From a virus (Duplodnaviria; Caudoviricetes): DNA of 60,108 nucleotides. A program made the translations under genes and the position numbers. This document shows, piece after piece, positions 14,758 to 26,464 of the stretch (its first letter is position 1; every line of letters begins with the position of its first letter). The stretch covers positions 1 through 60,108 of the IMG/VR virus record IMGVR_UViG_3300045000_000060. One strand, given 5' to 3'. Below the pieces are notes generated by a model, which worked only from the letters and a program-made list of their open reading frames with translations, did not search any database and was not told the DNA's origin.

Positions 14758-15191
14758 ACGCCCCAACTACCGACTTTCGGCCGGATCTGCCCTTGCGGCT
14801 CGATATCGCCGCACGAACCGCCTTCCCCGATGGCTCGATGACGGCCAGTGGACTGCGCAAGGAAGCCGGCCGCGGCAACCTTGTCATCTCCCGCATGGCG
14901 GGCAAGGATTACACCACCTTGAACGCCATCGCCCGAATGAGGGAACTATGCCAACTCCCGCCAAAGGAACGCGCCTCTGGCTCCGCAAGGCCCGCCGGGA
15001 TCGGAGCGGCAGAATCACCCGCAAGTCGGTCTGGCTCATCCGCGATGGAAAGCGCGACAAGAGCACTGGCTGCGGCCCGGGCGAGCGTGCAGGCGCTGAA
15101 AAATCCCTCTCAGCCTACCTCAACCGCAAGCAAGTCACCGACGTCACCAAGGGGGTCCGTCATCCCTCTCAGATCCCGGTCGCCTCCGTGA
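14754..15191 (+). CDS. xis: excisionase
   Basis: PLRLDIAA...FPDGSMTASGLRKEA.RG.L...GKDYTTL..I..MR..C; overlaps the int start. Confidence 0.8.
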   Translation: MNAPTTDFRPDLPLRLDIAARTAFPDGSMTASGLRKEAGRGNLVISRMAGKDYTTLNAIARMRELCQLPPKERASGSARPAGIGAAESPASRSGSSAMESATRALAAARASVQALKNPSQPTSTASKSPTSPRGSVIPLRSRSPP

Positions 15192-16096
15192 TCGCGCTCT
15201 ACTCAGAAGCGAAAGCAGAAGGCCACGCCCGGCCGAAAGAGACCGGAGCGCGGTTTGATAATCTGCTGGATTTTTTCGGCGACAAGATGCTGTCGGATAT
15301 CAACGGCGATCTTTGCCGAAAATATGCTGCGGCCCGATCGACCGACGCGGCAGCACGGCGCGAGCTCGAAGATTTACGCGCAGCGGTCAACATGCACCTT
15401 CAGGAAGGCCAGTGCTCCGAGATCATCAAGATCGTTCTCCCAAGACGCCGGCCGCCGCGCGAGCGATGGCTGACCCGCCAGGAGGCCGCGCAGCTCATCC
15501 GCCACGCCTGGCACTACCGGGAGATTCAGAAGGGTAGCCCCACGGGCCGCTTCAGCCGACGGCACCTCGCAAAATTCAGTCTTGTGGCTGCTTACACCGG
15601 CACACGAGCATCGGCCATCTGCGGGGCCGCGCTGCAGCCGACACCGGGGAGCGGGTGGATCGACCTTGAGCGCGGCGTTTTCTACCGACGCCCGATCGGC
15701 AAGCAGCAGACCAAGAAGCGGCAACCCGCGATCCCACTCCCCGTCGGCCTGCTCACGCACCTGCGCCGCTGGAAACGCATGGGACAGCGTTATGCCGTCG
15801 AATGGAATGGACAGCCCGTGCGCTCGGTCAGCAAGGGGTTCCGAAATGCCGTTCGCGACGCCGGCCTGAGCGCCGATGTCACGCCGCACGTCTGGCGGCA
15901 CACGTGCGCGACGTGGATGCTCCAGCGCGGCACGCCGCCCTTCGAGGTCGCCGGCTACACCGGCATGACGCTGCAGACCGTCCAGGACATCTATGGCCAC
16001 CACAGCCCGGATCATCTGTCGAAGGCCCGCAAGAGCTTTTCGCAACATCGCGACGATGCTGTGGCCGATGCTGTGGCCCGGAGGGCTGCGAAATGA
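14948..16096 (+). CDS. int: tyrosine integrase
   Basis: YTGTR, K, HVWRH, Y(for H)TG, YGH catalytic set; next to attP. Confidence 0.93.
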   Translation: MPTPAKGTRLWLRKARRDRSGRITRKSVWLIRDGKRDKSTGCGPGERAGAEKSLSAYLNRKQVTDVTKGVRHPSQIPVASVIALYSEAKAEGHARPKETGARFDNLLDFFGDKMLSDINGDLCRKYAAARSTDAAARRELEDLRAAVNMHLQEGQCSEIIKIVLPRRRPPRERWLTRQEAAQLIRHAWHYREIQKGSPTGRFSRRHLAKFSLVAAYTGTRASAICGAALQPTPGSGWIDLERGVFYRRPIGKQQTKKRQPAIPLPVGLLTHLRRWKRMGQRYAVEWNGQPVRSVSKGFRNAVRDAGLSADVTPHVWRHTCATWMLQRGTPPFEVAGYTGMTLQTVQDIYGHHSPDHLSKARKSFSQHRDDAVADAVARRAAK

Positions 16097-16264
16097 GAAA
16101 AAGCTGGTCGGAGTGGCAGGATTTGAACCTGCGACCCCCTCGTCCCGAACGAGGTAGGCCACCTTACAATCATTGGATTATCTCGCTTTTTCGCCCACGT
16201 TCGGCGACGTTCGCCCTCATCCGTTTACGTTCGGTTCACGGGATGCTGTGGCCAAGCTGTGGCC
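16055..16264. repeat. integrase arm-type direct repeats flanking attP
   Basis: GCTGTGGCC x4 at 16058, 16070, 16245 and 16256. Confidence 0.75.
16105..16155 (-). mobile_element. attP core = 3' part of tRNA-Pro(CGG)
   Basis: reverse complement ACCTCGTTCGGGACGAGGGGGTCGCAGGTTCAAATCCTGCCACTCCGACCA has anticodon arm, T arm and CCA but no D arm or 5' acceptor strand. Confidence 0.92.
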
Positions 16265-16280
16265 CGCGGCCGGTGTCGCC

Positions 16281-16472
16281 ATGACCGCCTCCCAATCCGC
16301 CACCCCCGCCTTCGCCGACGCGAGCGAGACCGCGCTCGACCAGCCGCTCCCCGAACTCCCGCCCGGCAAGAAGTACGGCCCGCGCATCGGCGGCTGGGGC
16401 CCGTACTCGATTATCGACGATGTGGCCGTTGCGCGCGATCAGGCCGCTGAGAGGGGATCAGTAAATTCGTGA
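16281..16472 (+). CDS. hypothetical protein
   Basis: GTGA-coupled to methylase 1. Confidence 0.45.
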   Translation: MTASQSATPAFADASETALDQPLPELPPGKKYGPRIGGWGPYSIIDDVAVARDQAAERGSVNS

Positions 16473-17467
16473 ACTACTACAACGAGATTGACCCATATGC
16501 AGCGCAGTGGCTCCGCAACCTCATCGACGCCGGACACATCGCCAGAGGCGACGTTGACGAGCGGAGCATCGTCGACGTGCGATCAGGCGAGCTCGCCGGT
16601 TACACGCAATGCCATTTCTTCGCTGGCATCGGCGGATGGTCCGTCGCACTCCGCCTCGCCGGCTGGTCCGATGACAGACCTGTTTGGACAGGCTCATGCC
16701 CCTGCCAGCCCTTCAGTGCCGCCGGCGCGGGCAAGGCGGCCGATGACGAACGCCACCTGTGGCCTGCGTGGTTTTCTCTCATCGCCGAGTGCCGCCCTCC
16801 AATCGTCTTTGGAGAGCAGGTTGAAGCGGCGATTGGATGGGGCTGGCTCGACGCTGTTTTCGCTGACCTGGAGGGCGAAGGCTACGCCTGCGGGGCGGCC
16901 GTACTCCCAGCTTGCGGCGTCGGCGCTCCGCATATCCGACAGCGAACATGGTTCGTGGCCAACACCGATGGCCGGGACACCAGCGCAGAAGGGCTACAAC
17001 GAGGCGGGGAACACGGACAGCAGCCGCAAAATGGTCTCGCTATGCGCGGGCTGGGCGACGCCTCGAAGCACGGAAGCGGGTCACTCGACCGGCAACCCGG
17101 ATCGCGCGCTCAATCACCGGAGCCGGCTGGAGGATCAGATTTTCCTCGCGTCTTGGTCAACACCGCGGGCGAACAAGTGGGGATTCCCGGATGCACATGG
17201 CAGCCAGGAAGCCCCATGGGCAACGCCGACAGCGAACGAGAAACGGCGTCGGGAGGATTTTCAAGAGGGCCGATCACTCAACGCGCTCGAAGCTTTTGGT
17301 CCGAAGCCGAATGGATCGAATGTCGGGACGGCCAGCAGCGGCCAATTGAACCCGGATCATCCCCGCTGGCTCATGGGATACCGGCGCGACCATCTAAGCT
17401 TCGCGCCTACGGCAACGCGATCGTTCCGCAAGTCGCGGCTGAATTCATCAAAGCCGCCTGCGATTAA
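16469..17467 (+). CDS. C5-cytosine DNA methyltransferase 1 (alpha chain)
   Basis: FFAGIGG, TGSCPCQPFS, GEQV, PHIRQR, YGNAIVP. Confidence 0.92.
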   Translation: MNYYNEIDPYAAQWLRNLIDAGHIARGDVDERSIVDVRSGELAGYTQCHFFAGIGGWSVALRLAGWSDDRPVWTGSCPCQPFSAAGAGKAADDERHLWPAWFSLIAECRPPIVFGEQVEAAIGWGWLDAVFADLEGEGYACGAAVLPACGVGAPHIRQRTWFVANTDGRDTSAEGLQRGGEHGQQPQNGLAMRGLGDASKHGSGSLDRQPGSRAQSPEPAGGSDFPRVLVNTAGEQVGIPGCTWQPGSPMGNADSERETASGGFSRGPITQRARSFWSEAEWIECRDGQQRPIEPGSSPLAHGIPARPSKLRAYGNAIVPQVAAEFIKAACD

Positions 17468-17522
17468 ATCCAACTCTAGTACATGTGCGTCCGAGGTTTC
17501 ACCTGCAACCAAAGGAGAATGA
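16488..17522 (+). CDS. nested +1-frame ORF: putative methylase 1 beta chain (TRD repeats plus motif IX)
   Basis: 344 open codons; four WxTP repeats; GQLNPDHPRWLMGY; true start uncertain. Confidence 0.7.
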   Translation: MTHMQRSGSATSSTPDTSPEATLTSGASSTCDQASSPVTRNAISSLASADGPSHSASPAGPMTDLFGQAHAPASPSVPPARARRPMTNATCGLRGFLSSPSAALQSSLESRLKRRLDGAGSTLFSLTWRAKATPAGRPYSQLAASALRISDSEHGSWPTPMAGTPAQKGYNEAGNTDSSRKMVSLCAGWATPRSTEAGHSTGNPDRALNHRSRLEDQIFLASWSTPRANKWGFPDAHGSQEAPWATPTANEKRRREDFQEGRSLNALEAFGPKPNGSNVGTASSGQLNPDHPRWLMGYRRDHLSFAPTATRSFRKSRLNSSKPPAIKSNSSTCASEVSPATKGE

Positions 17523-17524
17523 AC

Positions 17525-17842
17525 ATGTATTTCGATCCGACACTGCGCACCGACGCGAAGCCGATCGAGACGAAGGCAGATCCTTTCAAGCTCGGCACGC
17601 TCATCGCGTGGCTAGAGAAGCAGCCGGCCGACAAGCCGTATTGCTATCTCAGTTGCGGCGAGTGCCTGCTGGCAAATTACTTTACGGCGCACGGCCTCAA
17701 GCGGGTCTCGCTTGGCTACAACGCGCTCCACCACTCAGGGGGCATCAGGCTATTGCCGCCGGATTTCAACGACATCGCCTACTACGGAACGCGGACCTAT
17801 GGCGCTGCGCTCGATCGCGCGCGGGCATTGGTGCAGCGGTGA
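17525..17842 (+). CDS. hypothetical protein
   Basis: RBS AAGGAG; LIAWLEKQP...CLLANY. Confidence 0.7.
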   Translation: MYFDPTLRTDAKPIETKADPFKLGTLIAWLEKQPADKPYCYLSCGECLLANYFTAHGLKRVSLGYNALHHSGGIRLLPPDFNDIAYYGTRTYGAALDRARALVQR

Positions 17843-17874
17843 CAGAACATTCTACAGTTACAGGAGAAACCACC

Positions 17875-18246
17875 ATGTCGGATATTCTTTGGTGCTGCCA
17901 CGTTCGCGGTCCTGACGACGTTTACGCCGCGCCGGATTACGACACCGCGCTCAAGTGGGCGGACATAACTAACGCCTTCAACTGGCGCGGACGGAAGGGG
18001 ACAGTCGCACCGCCAGTCTCCTACGAAGACTGTCTGCTGAAAGCCGCCCCTGCCATCTGGCCTTGGAGCGCGGAAGCGCATGCGGAGAACCTCCCGAAGT
18101 CGATCGCGGACTTCGCGCCGCGTGGGGCCGGCATCGCAGTCGGAGAGAGCAACACAATCGAACATGGCGACGGCAGCGTGACGACCGCAACACGGCTGCC
18201 GGATGCGCCGGATGGCACGCCGCAAATTGCTCTTAAAAGGCAATAA
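17875..18246 (+). CDS. hypothetical phage protein
   Basis: RBS AGGAG; LWCCHVRGPDDVYAAP...WPWSAEAH. Confidence 0.7.
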   Translation: MSDILWCCHVRGPDDVYAAPDYDTALKWADITNAFNWRGRKGTVAPPVSYEDCLLKAAPAIWPWSAEAHAENLPKSIADFAPRGAGIAVGESNTIEHGDGSVTTATRLPDAPDGTPQIALKRQ

Positions 18247-18255
18247 GGGCGCGGC

Positions 18256-18567
18256 ATGACAGAACAGCAAACAGATGGACCGATCCCGCGCGCAGTTCTT
18301 GACGCTGCACGGCGGCGTATGTGCCGGTCCTTAGCCGCCGTCATCGTGCAGGCCATGGCCGATACAGACACCAACTTCACGACGATGGCATTCCGCATCG
18401 GGCAGAAGGAGAGCACGGTTCGCAGGTGGCTCGAAAAGCTGATCGACGGCGAGGATGACGGTCTCGCCCTAAACAATCTCTCGGACATGACGCTTGCCAT
18501 GGGGTGTGAGATTGATTTCTCCGTCCGACCCAAAGAGGAAACTAAGGGCGCGTCACAAAACCTATGA
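18256..18567 (+). CDS. XRE-like HTH protein
   Basis: MAFRIGQKESTVRRWL...LNNLSDMTLAMG. Confidence 0.65.
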   Translation: MTEQQTDGPIPRAVLDAARRRMCRSLAAVIVQAMADTDTNFTTMAFRIGQKESTVRRWLEKLIDGEDDGLALNNLSDMTLAMGCEIDFSVRPKEETKGASQNL

Positions 18568-19559
18568 ACTACTACAACGAGATTGACCCTTATGCAGCGC
18601 AATGGCTCCGTAACCTCATCGACGCCGGACACATCGCCCGAGGCGACGTTGACGAGCGGAGCATCGCCGACGTGCAGCCAGGCGATCTCGCCAGCTACAC
18701 CCAATGTCATTTCTTCGCCGGCATCGGAGGATGGTCCCTCGCCCTGCGACTCGCCGGATGGCCTGATGCCCGAGCCGTCTGGACCGGCTCCTGTCCGTGT
18801 CAGCCGCTTTCGAGCGCGGGACAGCGCAAGGGCCATGCCGACCAACGACATCTCTGGCCCGCTTTTCACCGCCTCATCTCCGAGTGCTCGCCTTCAATTG
18901 TCTTTGGAGAGCAGGTTGCGAGCGCGGATGGGCGTGAATGGCTCGCCGGAGTACGCGCTGATCTGGAAGCATTGGGATATGCCTGCGGGGGTGCCGATCT
19001 GTGCGCTGCGGGCGTCGGCGCGCCCCACATCCGACAGCGCCTTTATTGGCTGGCCCACGCCGAACATGCCGAACGGCGGACGGTCAATAGCCCATGCGGA
19101 GATGCGTGGGCGCACGGCAATGCACAAAGGAAAGAAGGTCCAGGTCGGATTGGAGGCGGTATCGCGGATGGTCTTACTCGGCTGGGACACGCCGACATCG
19201 CCCGTCAACACCAACGGTCACCAAGCGGGCAACAATCGCTACGTGACCAACTCGCTGCGGGTCTTGAAGGGCTGGGCTACGCCGCGGGCGCGGGACCACA
19301 AGAACAACGGCGTGAGTATCGCCCGGGCGGCGAAAGGTGTGGCGGACTCGTTGGATTTGCAGTCGAAGCTGGTGTGCCTCAGTGGAATGGCCCGACCATC
19401 GCCGTTGAGTGCTCGGATGGATGGCGCCGCGTTTCCGCTCAACCCGATGCATTCCCTCTGGCTCATGGGGTACGGGCCAGAATGGGAAAGCTGCGCGGTG
19501 CAGGCAACGCGATCAATCCGCAACTCGCCGCCGAATTCATCAAAGCAGCCGTCGAATAA
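18564..19559 (+). CDS. C5-cytosine DNA methyltransferase 2 (alpha chain)
   Basis: FFAGIGG, TGSCPCQPLS, GEQV, PHIRQR, AGNAINP; paralogue of 16469. Confidence 0.92.
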   Translation: MNYYNEIDPYAAQWLRNLIDAGHIARGDVDERSIADVQPGDLASYTQCHFFAGIGGWSLALRLAGWPDARAVWTGSCPCQPLSSAGQRKGHADQRHLWPAFHRLISECSPSIVFGEQVASADGREWLAGVRADLEALGYACGGADLCAAGVGAPHIRQRLYWLAHAEHAERRTVNSPCGDAWAHGNAQRKEGPGRIGGGIADGLTRLGHADIARQHQRSPSGQQSLRDQLAAGLEGLGYAAGAGPQEQRREYRPGGERCGGLVGFAVEAGVPQWNGPTIAVECSDGWRRVSAQPDAFPLAHGVRARMGKLRGAGNAINPQLAAEFIKAAVE

Positions 19560-19575
19560 TGGCCAGCCGACCTAG
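18583..19575 (+). CDS. nested +1-frame ORF: putative methylase 2 beta chain
   Basis: 330 open codons; three GWxTP repeats; PLNPMHSLWLMGY. Confidence 0.7.
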   Translation: MTLMQRNGSVTSSTPDTSPEATLTSGASPTCSQAISPATPNVISSPASEDGPSPCDSPDGLMPEPSGPAPVRVSRFRARDSARAMPTNDISGPLFTASSPSARLQLSLESRLRARMGVNGSPEYALIWKHWDMPAGVPICALRASARPTSDSAFIGWPTPNMPNGGRSIAHAEMRGRTAMHKGKKVQVGLEAVSRMVLLGWDTPTSPVNTNGHQAGNNRYVTNSLRVLKGWATPRARDHKNNGVSIARAAKGVADSLDLQSKLVCLSGMARPSPLSARMDGAAFPLNPMHSLWLMGYGPEWESCAVQATRSIRNSPPNSSKQPSNNGQPT

Positions 19576-19911
19576 GAGGTCAACCAGATGTTTGATCGAT
19601 GCCCATGGTGCGGAGGGAATAACGCCGAAGGCCACTTCGTGACCTGTTGGTCCAACAACGAGGCACACAAGCGGGAAGCGGAAAGGCGTAAGCGCGATCC
19701 GGCGCCCGCTGATGGCCAGTTAGCGAAGGATTAAGGGCATGGAAGACCTTTTCGACGTGGCAATCTGGAATCACTACGGCGATGTGGTCAAAGCCTTCTG
19801 GGATGTCAGTGCCGACGAGGTGGACGAAATCCGCGCGCAGTATGAAGACGAGCCGGAGTTGGTCGTTGTCGTTACAGAGCGCTGAATCGCCAGTCACCGG
19901 GAGAACAAAAC

Positions 19912-20476: not shown

Positions 20477-20698
20477 ATGATCGAGCGCTGCTACAAACGG
20501 TTTGGTCGGAACCTCCGCAACGTGCGGCTGGCTTGCGGTCTCTCACACCAGAAGCTTGCCGACCGCGTGGGCCTCGACCGCACGTCCATCGTTAATATTG
20601 AAGCCGGGCGGCAACGCATTCTCCTTAACGATATCCAGCGCTTCGCTGTCGCACTGCGGACAGATCGTAAATTTCTCCTAAAGGAGATCTGGTCATGA
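20477..20698 (+). CDS. XRE-family HTH regulator
   Basis: GRNLRNVR...GLSHQKLADRVGLDRTSIVNIEAGRQ. Confidence 0.88.
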   Translation: MIERCYKRFGRNLRNVRLACGLSHQKLADRVGLDRTSIVNIEAGRQRILLNDIQRFAVALRTDRKFLLKEIWS

Positions 20699-21081
20699 AA
20701 CTTCCAGACCCGGCAACGGTTAAACCGGCCGAATTAACCCAGGCGCTCACCGAGGTTGCGGAGGAAATGATTGCGCTCGATGGTGACCGCGACGACATGA
20801 ATCGAAGCGACCTGACGGTCGATATGACGATCAGGGCCGCAAAGCTCATGCTGGTAGCCGCGCTCATGATCGGTTCGGCTGCGCAGGCTTCGCAGAACGA
20901 ATGGCATCGCTGGTTCGCTTGGTATCCGGTCGAGGTCGACGCCTATGAGGTCAGCGAGATTCGCAACGGCAAGATGAGCTACCAAGTGTGGTGGGCCTGG
21001 GTCGACTACCGCTGGCACGAGTGGCAGGAAGTTGAGAACGACCGCGAATGGCACGGCTGGCGATACCGAATCGCGCGCTAA
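20695..21081 (+). CDS. hypothetical protein (Trp-rich C-terminus)
   Basis: coupled; WHRWFAWYPV. Confidence 0.65.
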   Translation: MKLPDPATVKPAELTQALTEVAEEMIALDGDRDDMNRSDLTVDMTIRAAKLMLVAALMIGSAAQASQNEWHRWFAWYPVEVDAYEVSEIRNGKMSYQVWWAWVDYRWHEWQEVENDREWHGWRYRIAR

Positions 21082-21586: not shown

Positions 21587-21882
21587 GGAGCCACACCGTT
21601 ACGGTCCGAGAGGGCACGGACATGGGTCCCGTCGATTGGGAGCACCCGTCCGCCAAGGACAAGCCGCAAATCTGGCGCGAGGCTGAGAAGAATGTGAGCA
21701 GCTTTCTTTTCAACGGCCGTCAGCTCCTCGCCATGCGCATGTACGACGGCTGGCCGTATTGGAAGCCGACGCCTGCGGTCTACTTTGTCGGCCCGCTGAA
21801 CAGCGGGGAATGGGCGCACTTCAACAGCTATGGCGCGCACGGAAACAGCATCACCAGGAAACCAGAAGGAGCCACCCCATGA
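21583..21882 (+). CDS. hypothetical protein
   Basis: coupled overlaps. Confidence 0.65.
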   Translation: MRSHTVTVREGTDMGPVDWEHPSAKDKPQIWREAEKNVSSFLFNGRQLLAMRMYDGWPYWKPTPAVYFVGPLNSGEWAHFNSYGAHGNSITRKPEGATP

Positions 21883-22022
21883 GCCGCAAGCCCAACCCCG
21901 TCCCCATCGAGGCGCACGTCGACGACGACAAGGCGCAAGCCCGTACCGACCTCGCCACCTTCCGGCAGGCCGAGAACAAGCCCGATGTCGTCAAGCCGCC
22001 GACCGAAGGCAAGGCGAACTAG
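21879..22022 (+). CDS. hypothetical protein
   Basis: RBS AAGGAG; coupled. Confidence 0.5.
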   Translation: MSRKPNPVPIEAHVDDDKAQARTDLATFRQAENKPDVVKPPTEGKAN

Positions 22023-22259
22023 ACACCAGACGGGCGCGCCGGGCGTCCTCCAGCGTCGGCTTTAGGCGCACCCGGTATTTCCATCGCCCGCGTGTTGGGC
22101 ACGAAGAAGAAGGAGGACGAGGAATGATGAAGGACCGAACCGCCGATTTGCTCGGCATCCTTGTCGGGGGTGCGCTGGGACTTCTTTTAGTCGCGGCATT
22201 TCTTGGCGGCCTGCGGGCGTTCTTCGGCGGATAGAGGCAAAGCAAAGAAAGGAAATGCC

Positions 22260-25446: not shown

Positions 25447-25755
25447 ATGACTGAAATGAAAACCATTGGCACCATCGCCCTACTATTAATGCTTTCCGGT
25501 TGCGGAGAAGATCGCCCTCGATATGGTTTCGAGTTCGTCATCTACTGCGGCGACGTTACAATGAGCTACATATCTGACAAAGACGGGCGGGTAAAAAGTC
25601 TCTTACCGCAAATATATTCCCGTGTGTTCTTCTCCTATGGAGGCGGGATGTTCCAAAACGGAATCCCGGTCCCGCTCGAATTGCGGGAAGACTGCCGCAT
25701 CCTGCGAGGTGGCCCGACAATCTGGGTGAACGGCTTTCCGTCCCCTGATGCCTAA
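25447..25755 (+). CDS. lipoprotein
   Basis: lipobox LSGC after a hydrophobic stretch. Confidence 0.65.
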   Translation: MTEMKTIGTIALLLMLSGCGEDRPRYGFEFVIYCGDVTMSYISDKDGRVKSLLPQIYSRVFFSYGGGMFQNGIPVPLELREDCRILRGGPTIWVNGFPSPDA

Positions 25756-26464
25756 ACAGATGAAAGATACCTACATGAACATTTCTCGCAGAGCCGCACT
25801 CGCGCAGATCACCGCGGCCGCGGCGCTTATTAATGGCGCGGCTGCGGCGGAATCTCCCGGCAACAAGCTGGTGATCACCGGCCACCGCGGCAACATCGGA
25901 TCTCGTTTCGTGCCCTACTACAAGGAGCGCGGCTACGACGTGGTGGGGATCGACAAGAAGGACGGCACGGAATCCGATCTGGCGATGCGCGGGGCCTGGG
26001 AAGCCTCACTGGCGGGGGCCGTCGCGATCCTTCATCTCGCGGGCGTCGGCACGCAGGACGCCTCGCAAGCTGACGTGAACCGGGACAACATCCTCGCGAC
26101 GCAAAACTTGCTCCGGGCGGCAAGCGCGGCTGATGTCGGGCGAATCATCTTCACAAGTTCGTGCTGGGTACGGCCCGCACACTACCGGGAAGACAACACC
26201 TCCGAATTGCCGGATCGGCCTTACGGCTGGGCGAAGGTCGCCAATGAACGCGCGGTGACAGAGTGGGTATTGGAGCGCCTAGAGCGTCGTGCCTTCATCA
26301 TCCGGGTCGGCTGGGCGCCACGTGAAGGAGTGCCTAGGCCGGAAGGTTGGGCGAGCAGGCTCTACAATTCGACCAACCATTTGGCGGATTATTTCAATCA
26401 CGCGCTAACCCATCAGACGGCGCAGTATTATTGCGTGGACATGGCGCAGCCGAAGGCTACATGA
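25748..26464 (+). CDS. NAD-dependent epimerase/dehydratase (extended SDR) with Tat-like leader
   Basis: VITGHRGNIG, ILHLAG, IIFTSS, YGWAK; SRRAAL leader. Confidence 0.85.
   Translation: MPKQMKDTYMNISRRAALAQITAAAALINGAAAAESPGNKLVITGHRGNIGSRFVPYYKERGYDVVGIDKKDGTESDLAMRGAWEASLAGAVAILHLAGVGTQDASQADVNRDNILATQNLLRAASAADVGRIIFTSSCWVRPAHYREDNTSELPDRPYGWAKVANERAVTEWVLERLERRAFIIRVGWAPREGVPRPEGWASRLYNSTNHLADYFNHALTHQTAQYYCVDMAQPKAT

Follow-up and report, generated by a model that had tools for sequence, protein, structure and literature searches.

Two phage loci in which a cytosine-5 methyltransferase gene is overlapped by a conserved +1 reading frame: evidence for split enzymes with a putative recognition chain in the second frame

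The complete virus record IMGVR_UViG_3300045000_000060 (Caudoviricetes), analysed here over its full length of 60,108 bases (the window; GC content 62%), carries downstream of an integrase gene (14948-16096) two paralogous open reading frames (ORFs) for cytosine-5 (C5) DNA methyltransferases (MTases) on the same strand, the only two copies in the record. Each MTase frame, referred to as alpha or frame 0, is overlapped nearly end to end by an ORF in the +1 frame, referred to as beta, which begins 19 nt 3' of the alpha start and extends past the alpha stop, by 55 nt at locus 1 and by 16 nt at locus 2 (Table 1). An initial annotation had interpreted the two loci as split alpha/beta methylases encoded by overlapped genes. 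Its description of the layout was reproduced throughout, with the ORF limits, the motifs I, IV, VI, VIII and X on alpha and the strings SLESRL, WxTP and LNPxHxxWLMGY in the +1 frame at the places it had given, and with both nested ORFs ending at the ribosome-binding site or start of the next gene.

Table 1. Features of the two methyltransferase loci (positions in the window; where two ranges are given, the first belongs to locus 1 and the second to locus 2)
Feature	Positions	Strand	Description
alpha1	16469-17467	+	C5-MTase catalytic chain, 332 aa, GTG start; motifs I, IV, VI, VIII, linker, motif X
beta1	16488-17522	+	maximal +1-frame ORF, 344 codons; constrained core ~16779 to ~17440
alpha2	18564-19559	+	paralogous catalytic chain, 331 aa, ATG start; 55% identical to alpha1
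beta2	18583-19575	+	maximal +1-frame ORF, 330 codons
FAGIGG (motif I)	16619-16636; 18714-18731	+	alpha1; alpha2 (aa 51-56 of each)
PCQP	16700-16711; 18795-18806	+	alpha1; alpha2
GEQV (motif VI)	16811-16822; 18906-18917	+	alpha1; alpha2
HIRQR	16931-16945; 19026-19040	+	alpha1; alpha2
GNAIVP/GNAINP	17411-17428; 19503-19520	+	alpha1; alpha2
alpha1 linker	16964-17296	+	codons 166-276; frame 0 open, unconserved, predicted disordered
SLESRL	16806-16823; 18901-18918	+	+1 frame; same nucleotides as GEQV (motif VI) of frame 0
beta1 N-terminal helix and beta-hairpin domain (predicted)	16779-16940	+	SAALQSSLESRL...LTWR...TPAGR...; on nucleotides of alpha1 motifs VI-VIII
beta1 WxTP modules	16956-17228	+	WPTP 16956, WATP 17052, WSTP 17154, WATP 17217; candidate target-recognition region
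beta2 WxTP modules	19051, 19183, 19273	+	three units
beta1 motif IX-like element	17346-17381	+	LNPDHPRWLMGY; overlaps alpha1 RPIEPGSSPLAHG segment
beta2 motif IX-like element	19438-19473	+	LNPMHSLWLMGY; +1 frame
ATGA junction, beta1 end	17519-17522	+	beta1 TGA 17520-17522 overlaps ATG 17519-17521 of ORF 17519-17842; AAAGGAGA precedes ATG
beta2 stop	19573-19575	+	TAG within TAGGAGG, upstream of ATG 19588

Within their own genome both loci are outliers for the openness of the +1 frame, beyond what chance provides. When 60 long ORFs of the record were compared, the longest +1 open stretch of alpha2 covered 0.99 of the gene and the mutual coverage of the two frames at locus 1 was 0.94, as opposed to a best +1 coverage of 0.73 among the other ORFs, most of which lay at 0.15-0.5.

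The frame 0 product has the characteristics of a catalytic chain. Pfam PF00145 is matched by alpha1 with 56.2 bits (E 4.8e-15) and by alpha2 with 56.0 bits (E 5.6e-15; cut-off 22), restricted to residues 74-172 of either chain, TIGR00675 stays under its cut-off of 100.65 with 28.5 and 37 bits for the two alphas, and phrog_363 is matched over the full length (alpha1 E 1.1e-83, alpha2 E 8.9e-80). By sequence alpha1 matches M.HhaI over residues 73-167 only, comprising motifs IV-VIII, and a Foldseek search with the AlphaFold2 (AF2) model of alpha returned M.HaeIII and M.HhaI as top matches over ~172-193 columns, equivalent to the catalytic domain. The residues C79, E116, R157 and R159, invariant in 39 alphas and present in both window copies, we take to be the catalytic cysteine of PCQ, the ENV-type glutamate of motif VI and the arginines of the motif VIII RxR, motif names (I, IV, VI, VIII, IX, X) and catalytic roles following the general C5-MTase literature.

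Between motifs VIII and X the initial annotation had seen no recognisable target-recognition domain (TRD) or motif IX, and the wider comparison agrees, as no column between positions 164 and 277 is conserved to 90% or more in the 39 alphas. In the AF2 prediction of alpha alone, residues 1-165 and the helix 320-331 are confident, and residues 187-271 have a predicted local distance difference test score (pLDDT) below 50 and are devoid of secondary structure. The small domain composed of TRD and motif IX was not found on the alpha chain; the IX-like element sits in the +1 frame. Without a conserved or folded region between VIII and X, alpha would therefore be without a recognition domain of its own.

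A peculiarity of alpha concerns its N-terminal part. Motif I (FAGIGG) lies only 21 residues ahead of PCQ in both copies (16469-16711, 18564-18806), and is itself preceded by a conserved, confidently folded segment of ~45 residues (NYYNEIDPYAAQWLRNLI...GDVDERSI); in the TIGR00675 alignment residues 3-167 of alpha2 correspond to profile positions 25-163, and in the alpha of Paenibacillus phage Diva motif I is located at residues 7-12, 66 residues ahead of PCQ. In alpha, a motif II/III-like part may therefore have moved ahead of motif I by permutation.

Selection on the two frames was assessed with 100 distinct alpha ORFs from two IMG/VR scans and three named phages (GC 0.55-0.69; alpha identity in the family ~45-62%), out of which 95 alphas of at most 400 aa were aligned. 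The +1 frame holds an open run of 230-389 codons in 100/100 alphas, and the +2 frame contains 4-36 stops. That homologues would lack +1 stops had been put forward in the initial annotation as a way to check the dual coding, and in the aligned genes such stops occur only at codon 42 or before and at codon 311 or beyond, with none of the 95 genes having one within codons 43-310. In comparison with synonymous-codon shuffles that preserve each alpha protein, 0 stops were observed versus 29.1 expected in codons 43-100, 0 versus 121.0 in codons 101-165, 0 versus 82.9 in codons 166-276 and 0 versus 33.6 in codons 277-310, in total 0 versus ~267. The flanks are not depleted (116 versus 149.3 in codons 1-42 and 97 versus 64.3 in codons 311-332).

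Equally, codon choice in alpha is restricted. The codon entropy at conserved alpha residues relative to gene-wide usage, determined for 78 sequences less than 75% identical, is 0.90 in codons 1-35, 0.86 in codons 36-60 and 0.83 in codons 61-100, and drops to 0.48 in codons 101-175 and 0.37 in codons 270-310. Individual codons are fixed in these GC-rich genes, such as V118 as GTT (75/75), G142 as GGG (61/61) and I156 as ATC (64/64), or nearly so, such as F114 as TTT (59/60) and A301 as GCT (69/70). Alpha loses its synonymous freedom in precisely those stretches in which the +1 protein shows conservation. The per-frame substitution check that had likewise been suggested at the outset gave, as pairwise ratios of non-synonymous to synonymous differences (pN/pS; 250/724 pairs) for frames 0, +1 and +2, values of 0.20, 1.76 and 1.63 in codons 1-35, of 0.21, 1.53 and 1.47 in codons 44-100, of 0.47, 0.85 and 1.50 in codons 101-164 and of 0.48, 0.71 and 1.17 in codons 277-325. 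These values give a map in which only alpha is constrained in codons 1-100, both frames are constrained in codons 101-164 and 277-325, and alpha is unconstrained in the linker. With stop avoidance and codon choice, they show the +1 frame to be a real coding frame under selection; throughout the family both frames are open and subject to purifying selection.

The product of the +1 frame can be divided into three parts. Its N-terminal part is encoded over alpha motifs VI-VIII; counted from position 16743, AF2 predicts a helix at residues 15-34 and strands at 39-47 and 53-61, with pLDDT 82-90 for the block. For beta alone the predicted template modelling score is 0.24, and besides the N-terminal helix and hairpin solely two short helices at the LNP..WLMG element are formed. 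The middle part consists of WxTP units, and in 37 beta sequences the conservation of W72, T74, W104, W138 and T140 is complete or reaches at least 90%. Among 360 beta proteins the number of units ranges from 0 to 10 and unit types recur at differing positions, with the WPTPMAGTPAQ-type found in 114/360 proteins at unit index 1-6. The WxTP units are candidate recognition modules. In the third part, the IX-like element, G200, L202, N203, P204, W209, L210 and M211 are invariant or near-invariant in the 37 sequences.

Since beta1 and beta2 have 0 of three module types in common, as scored by motif and not by clustering, and are 36% identical over the aligned core, the two paralogues probably methylate different sequences. 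The beta relatives P0005, P0013 and P0110 reach 572-583 aa with ~10 or more WxTP units, and alpha-frame ORFs longer than 400 aa occur as well (L077, L086, L103, L105). These alpha-frame ORFs suggest that the alpha linker may lengthen along with beta. At the other extreme stand six loci (L111, L123, L124, L126, L128, L129) with an alpha VIII-X linker of only 100-109 nt, which would leave room for few or no WxTP modules in beta.

No Pfam or NCBIfam match was obtained for beta1 or beta2, and ten of the longest matches of a beta profile equally lack a Pfam domain. On the level of PHROG families the +1 products match phrog_1008 (beta1 E 8.5e-23, beta2 E 5.5e-16) and phrog_31772, both labelled 'DNA methyltransferase', so that at both window loci frame 0 matches phrog_363 and the +1 frame of the same DNA phrog_1008. 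Searched with the beta profile, 1.84 billion proteins yielded 31,598 cluster representatives at E<=1e-3, of which 8,048 also pass E<=1e-30. By tblastn, alpha occurs in 471 phage records; beta, detected in 211, sits at the alpha locus in 211/211. As a side observation, at one homologous locus alpha is fused in frame to DUF2800 (PF10926) in a 770 aa ORF (L042:1492-3801).

Two phages connect beta to known enzyme architecture. Paenibacillus phage Diva possesses the same two-frame layout, consisting of gp49 and gp50 ('g49 internal gene'), and gp50 aligns to the beta profile with 99% probability (E 8.7e-18). In gp71 (479 aa) of Mycobacterium phage Madiba, motifs I-VIII share a single frame with five LPTP units, FPEWMMGWPAGW and GNGVCP; the protein matches phrog_363 (1.9e-78) as well as phrog_1008 (7.6e-70, best stretch residues 319-478). 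From these relations the beta region would correspond to the VIII-X segment of single-chain relatives, that is to the small recognition domain. The beta element is called IX-like on the basis of the shared PHROG profile and of a profile alignment by hhalign to the Madiba FPEWMMGWPAGW site, which has 72% probability over 23 columns and is weak.

The joint prediction of alpha and beta, a further check named in the initial annotation, gave interaction prediction scores from aligned errors (ipSAE) of 0.91, 0.91 and 0.92, with 0.00 for the best control and a contact agreement between runs of at least 58%. The pLDDT of beta is at least 56 in the complex and 31 when alpha is replaced; that of alpha reaches 71 next to beta and 53 next to unrelated proteins. 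Beta 198-225, which includes the IX-like element, is predicted to touch motif X of alpha at 297-321 and motif VIII at 153-155, the contacts of the beta1 LNPDHPRWLMGY element itself being with alpha 314-321 and 153-155, and beta residues 13-59 of the N-terminal domain also belong to the interface. The prediction supports alpha-beta binding, short of showing it.

Whether frame 0 remains intact was assessed at 49 loci retrieved through beta peptides alone, 47 of them complete and two cut by contig ends. In 44/47 complete loci motifs I-VIII and X lie in one frame that is stop-free across linkers of 100-970 nt. The alpha parts I-VIII and X are in different frames at L114, L116 and L121, perhaps because the genes are broken, the assembly is faulty or the arrangement is a different one.

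Taken together, we consider it probable, with a likelihood of roughly 0.78, that each locus encodes two M.EcoHK31I-like chains which form one cytosine-5 methyltransferase with the recognition region on beta. The initial proposal of two split alpha/beta methylases from overlapped genes is thereby supported by stop avoidance, per-frame constraint and the predicted complex. We infer that beta is translated, that the heterodimer is formed, that the WxTP units act in recognition and that the two targets differ. Alpha would constitute the catalytic large domain with N-terminal segment, motifs I, IV, VI and VIII and subsequently the motif X helix, which would be tied to the domain by a spacer of ~110 residues whose sequence is unselected and whose reading frame is kept open. 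Beta would initiate internally, upstream of about alpha codon 92, at a site that is not conserved across the family, and would comprise a helix-hairpin domain on the nucleotides of alpha motifs VI-VIII, a WxTP module array of variable make-up on those of the alpha spacer, and an IX-like LNPxHxxWLMGxPxxW element on those of the conserved hairpin preceding alpha motif X. Docked near alpha motifs VIII and X, beta might supply the small DNA-recognition domain missing from alpha, and two such loci would give the phage two protective methylation specificities.

Several observations weigh against this reading. The beginning of beta is poorly defined: start candidates are TTG 16488, ATG 16497, ATG 16671 and ATG 16743 for beta1 and TTG 18583, ATG 18592, ATG 18766 and ATG 18835 for beta2, and in the family a +1-frame ATG occurs at alpha codon 36 in 64/95 and at codon 92 in 39/95 genes, no start being conserved and the codon-36 ATG being absent from both window loci. 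A Shine-Dalgarno-like 4-mer precedes the in-ORF ATG in 45/61 cases at codon 36 and 39/39 at codon 92. In codons 44-100 the +1 frame is without protein-level constraint (pN/pS 1.53) and stop avoidance (0 versus 29.1) is the only feature that favours translation. For single genes the +1 signal is modest, as in 53/95 genes at least 1 of 200 shuffles matched the observed length (maximum 45/200), and as the homologues are related, combined stop probabilities overstate the case; the weight lies consequently in the consistency across the family. In the linker, pN/pS of 1.12, 0.71 and 1.00 for frames 0, +1 and +2 derives from alignments built on the +1 frame and is biased towards it, and frame-symmetric global alignment of distant pairs barely separates the frames (identity 0.21, 0.24 and 0.24; score per residue -0.11, 0.18 and -0.02), so that the case for the linker rests on stop avoidance and motif conservation.

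The same holds for the assignment of beta as a subunit. Sequence searches of beta versus the PDB delivered only chance-level LptG matches (E 0.08 or worse), and besides the weak hhalign result, BLASTP of beta1 versus Madiba gp71 is not significant (E 0.36). The ipSAE mark applied is met by 58/80 solved complexes and by 2/110 mismatched pairs, with self-built alignments, and the score may partly be due to likeness to solved single-chain C5-MTases. Furthermore, for a few of the top contacts, between alpha 144-147 and beta 54-57, the coding nucleotides are adjacent or the same, so that these contacts may reflect coupling through the shared DNA.

Among the alternatives, the frameshifted fusion that the initial annotation had left standing can be formulated as a single polypeptide generated by two programmed shifts, from frame 0 to +1 after motif VIII and back to frame 0 before motif X. 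Such a double shift would recreate the order I-VIII, modules, IX and X of single-chain Madiba gp71, which matches both the alpha and the beta PHROG family. However, beta constraint overlies the nucleotides of alpha motifs VI-VIII (entropy ratio 0.48; SLESRL on GEQV), so that both frames must be read there, and neither a +1 frame open from codon 43 nor a frame 0 open through the linker in 44/47 loci is needed for a double shift. Slippery X_XXY_YYZ heptamers or homopolymer runs are not conserved (at most 8/95 genes per 10-codon bin), on which ground the fusion was rejected as main mechanism, and a frame-0 stop that could drive the +1 shift is not present; we regard it as extremely improbable. 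Scarcely more credit is given to a +1 ORF that is untranslated and owes its openness and conservation to the alpha sequence, GC-rich codons or a nucleic-acid constraint. In a genome with 62% GC long shadow ORFs are common, shuffles reach the observed +1 run in 53/95 genes, and upstream of codon 100 the +1 frame looks non-coding. Yet ~267 expected stops are absent from codons 43-310 with neither flanks nor +2 frame depleted, and the layout is identical in phage Diva, whose group of Paenibacillus phages has ~42% G+C according to the available part of the source (PMC4472882). The strongest +1 conservation (WxTP, GQLNP..WLMG) moreover includes a stretch where alpha is unconserved and can thus not be the shadow of alpha, and a single-chain enzyme carries the matching region in frame. 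On the basis of shuffles, codon entropy and per-frame pN/pS a by-product was rejected for codons 101-310; for codons 44-100 it was not rejected.

A translated and selected beta could, on the other hand, serve as a separate DNA-binding protein, regulator or anti-defence protein and be no MTase subunit at all, which is unlikely, if less so than the two preceding explanations. Its lack of a Pfam, NCBIfam or PDB match and the poor fold predicted for beta alone would fit, as would nested +1 ORFs in complete single-chain MTases, where no part is missing, as in Streptococcus phage 5093. Against a role apart from alpha speak the missing conserved or folded VIII-X region of alpha, the beta-type sequence between VIII and X in the single-chain enzyme, the occurrence of beta at the alpha locus in all 211 matched phage records, and the predicted complex, which places the IX-like element on alpha motifs X and VIII and in which each chain gains confidence only with the other.

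Concerning the surroundings of the two split-enzyme loci, the alpha2 ATG overlaps the TGA of the preceding ORF 18256-18567 (ATGA, 18564-18567). In phage K1G the end of alpha is overlapped by the downstream helicase gene, unlike the ATGA formed by the beta1 stop and next start in the window. On the DNA level loci 1 and 2 are 92-93% identical over the first 120 nt (16469-16588 versus 18564-18683), 62-75% through motif VIII and ~50% in the linker/module region, a drop that suggests gene conversion, or a recent duplication with subsequent replacement of the middle. A PHROG search gave no match for the ORFs 16173-16472, 17519-17842, 17872-18246, 18256-18567, 19588-19734, 20695-21081 and 21830-22234; among the neighbours scanned only the integrase and 25748-26464 have matches, and a restriction nuclease partner was not identified among them. 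ARAGORN detected no tRNA or tmRNA gene on the whole record, despite the integrase. Of the sequencing runs in which the stretch occurs, each with a share of at most 0.21, none is listed as RNA, which bears on expression in neither direction.

The consequences of dual coding start with annotation. The initial statement that gene callers would miss the nested genes is only partly correct, since databases contain many beta-frame proteins and both frames, or beta only, are present in some GenBank records. In most records a single frame is given, the product is called 'hypothetical', as are the beta-frame proteins in their sources, or both frames are labelled 'DNA methyltransferase' with no remark. 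A phage methylome predicted on the basis of alpha would miss the recognition part. With ~800 nt of dual-coded sequence, in which alpha-only, beta-only and joint constraint adjoin, and thousands of diverged homologues, the family offers a rich data set on codon sharing. That a temperate phage has two copies of a putatively modular recognition chain points to an inexpensive way of gaining new protective specificities versus restriction systems. Naturally split C5-MTases serve as platforms for targeted methylation, as described in the accessible part of PMC2836561, and a family with a separate modular recognition chain would extend these platforms.

A more far-reaching proposition, which we hold tentatively and at somewhat less than even odds, is that these loci belong to a family of long genes overlapping on the same strand that ranks among the largest of its kind in prokaryotic viruses, in which the +1 frame encodes a folded modular recognition chain with exchangeable WxTP units, frame 0 contributes merely an open, sequence-free tether that leads motif X back to the catalytic domain, and the arrangement may have originated from a nested gene. 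A short nested +1 gene over motifs IV-VIII, of the type seen in phage 5093, could have captured TRD and motif IX via paired compensating frameshifts. Phages might then re-target methylation by shuffling beta modules with alpha function untouched, and the two paralogues would supply two or more independent specificities.

The principle of a second MTase chain in another frame is not new with the loci described here, as it is known from M.EcoHK31I, for which it was reportedly set out in 1995 by Lee, Kam and Shaw, and the layout exists in some GenBank annotations. M.EcoHK31I from E. coli (YGGCCR) consists, as far as the available sections of the sources tell, of two polypeptides with beta in an alternative frame inside the alpha gene, alpha containing motifs I-VIII, X and the TRD and beta containing motif IX (PMC2836561, PMC3404938). 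Compared by layout and not by sequence, the window loci resemble this system in a beta in the alternative frame within alpha, open in 95/95 homologues, and in the distribution of motifs I-VIII and X to alpha and the IX-like element to beta. They differ from M.EcoHK31I, with its TRD on alpha, in the conserved WxTP modules on beta and the predicted disorder of alpha between VIII and X, as well as in a beta ORF that spans almost the whole alpha gene and ends 16-55 nt beyond its stop. M.EcoHK31I is also part of a restriction-modification system, whereas neighbours scanned in the window include no nuclease partner. In M.AquI, a natural two-chain C5-MTase split in the variable region, the small chain carries motifs IX and X, as stated in the accessible text of PMC3404938; in the window motif X remains part of alpha and the overlap of the two genes is complete.

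Among phages, totally overlapping C5-MTase ORFs have been noted for the S. thermophilus 5093 group with reference to S. pneumoniae phage MM1 and Tn5252 in the available portion of PMC5601072. The 5093 group shares with the window a same-strand, other-frame ORF inside a phage C5-MTase gene, but the MTase of Streptococcus phage 5093 (L135:6067-7026) is complete in one chain, which includes RKLTPRECWRLQGFPD and GNSVTVNV. Its nested +1 ORF of 141 codons (L135:6218-6643) lies over motifs IV-VIII and matches phrog_16143 (E 6.1e-59); it also resembles the N-terminal part of phrog_1008 weakly (E 1.2e-4), a similarity for which alpha homology could account, and hhalign of this ORF versus the beta profile gave no match. 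[quoted passage not shown] SPR/phi3T-type phage C5-MTases are multispecific, with several tandem TRDs that have one target each; to these the WxTP arrays, with 0-10 units and types at varying positions, bear a resemblance only.

The closest counterparts, with the same layout and homologous proteins, are Escherichia phage K1G ORF31/ORF30 ('Mte8-like'), Xanthomonas phage PhiXhv-28 (two 'DNA methyltransferase' coding sequences) and Diva gp49/gp50. These pairs are known as annotations, and no analysis or experiment on them was found in the accessible parts of PMC5582158, PMC6070908 and PMC5056774; equally, no paper analysing both frames of the phrog_363/phrog_1008 family was found in the literature, most subscription journals being outside the search. 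In comparison with K1G, PhiXhv-28 and Diva the window genome holds two diverged copies, and the evidence supports its loci as another, twofold case from a very large family of dual-coded phage MTases that probably work like M.EcoHK31I, with the labour divided in a different manner.

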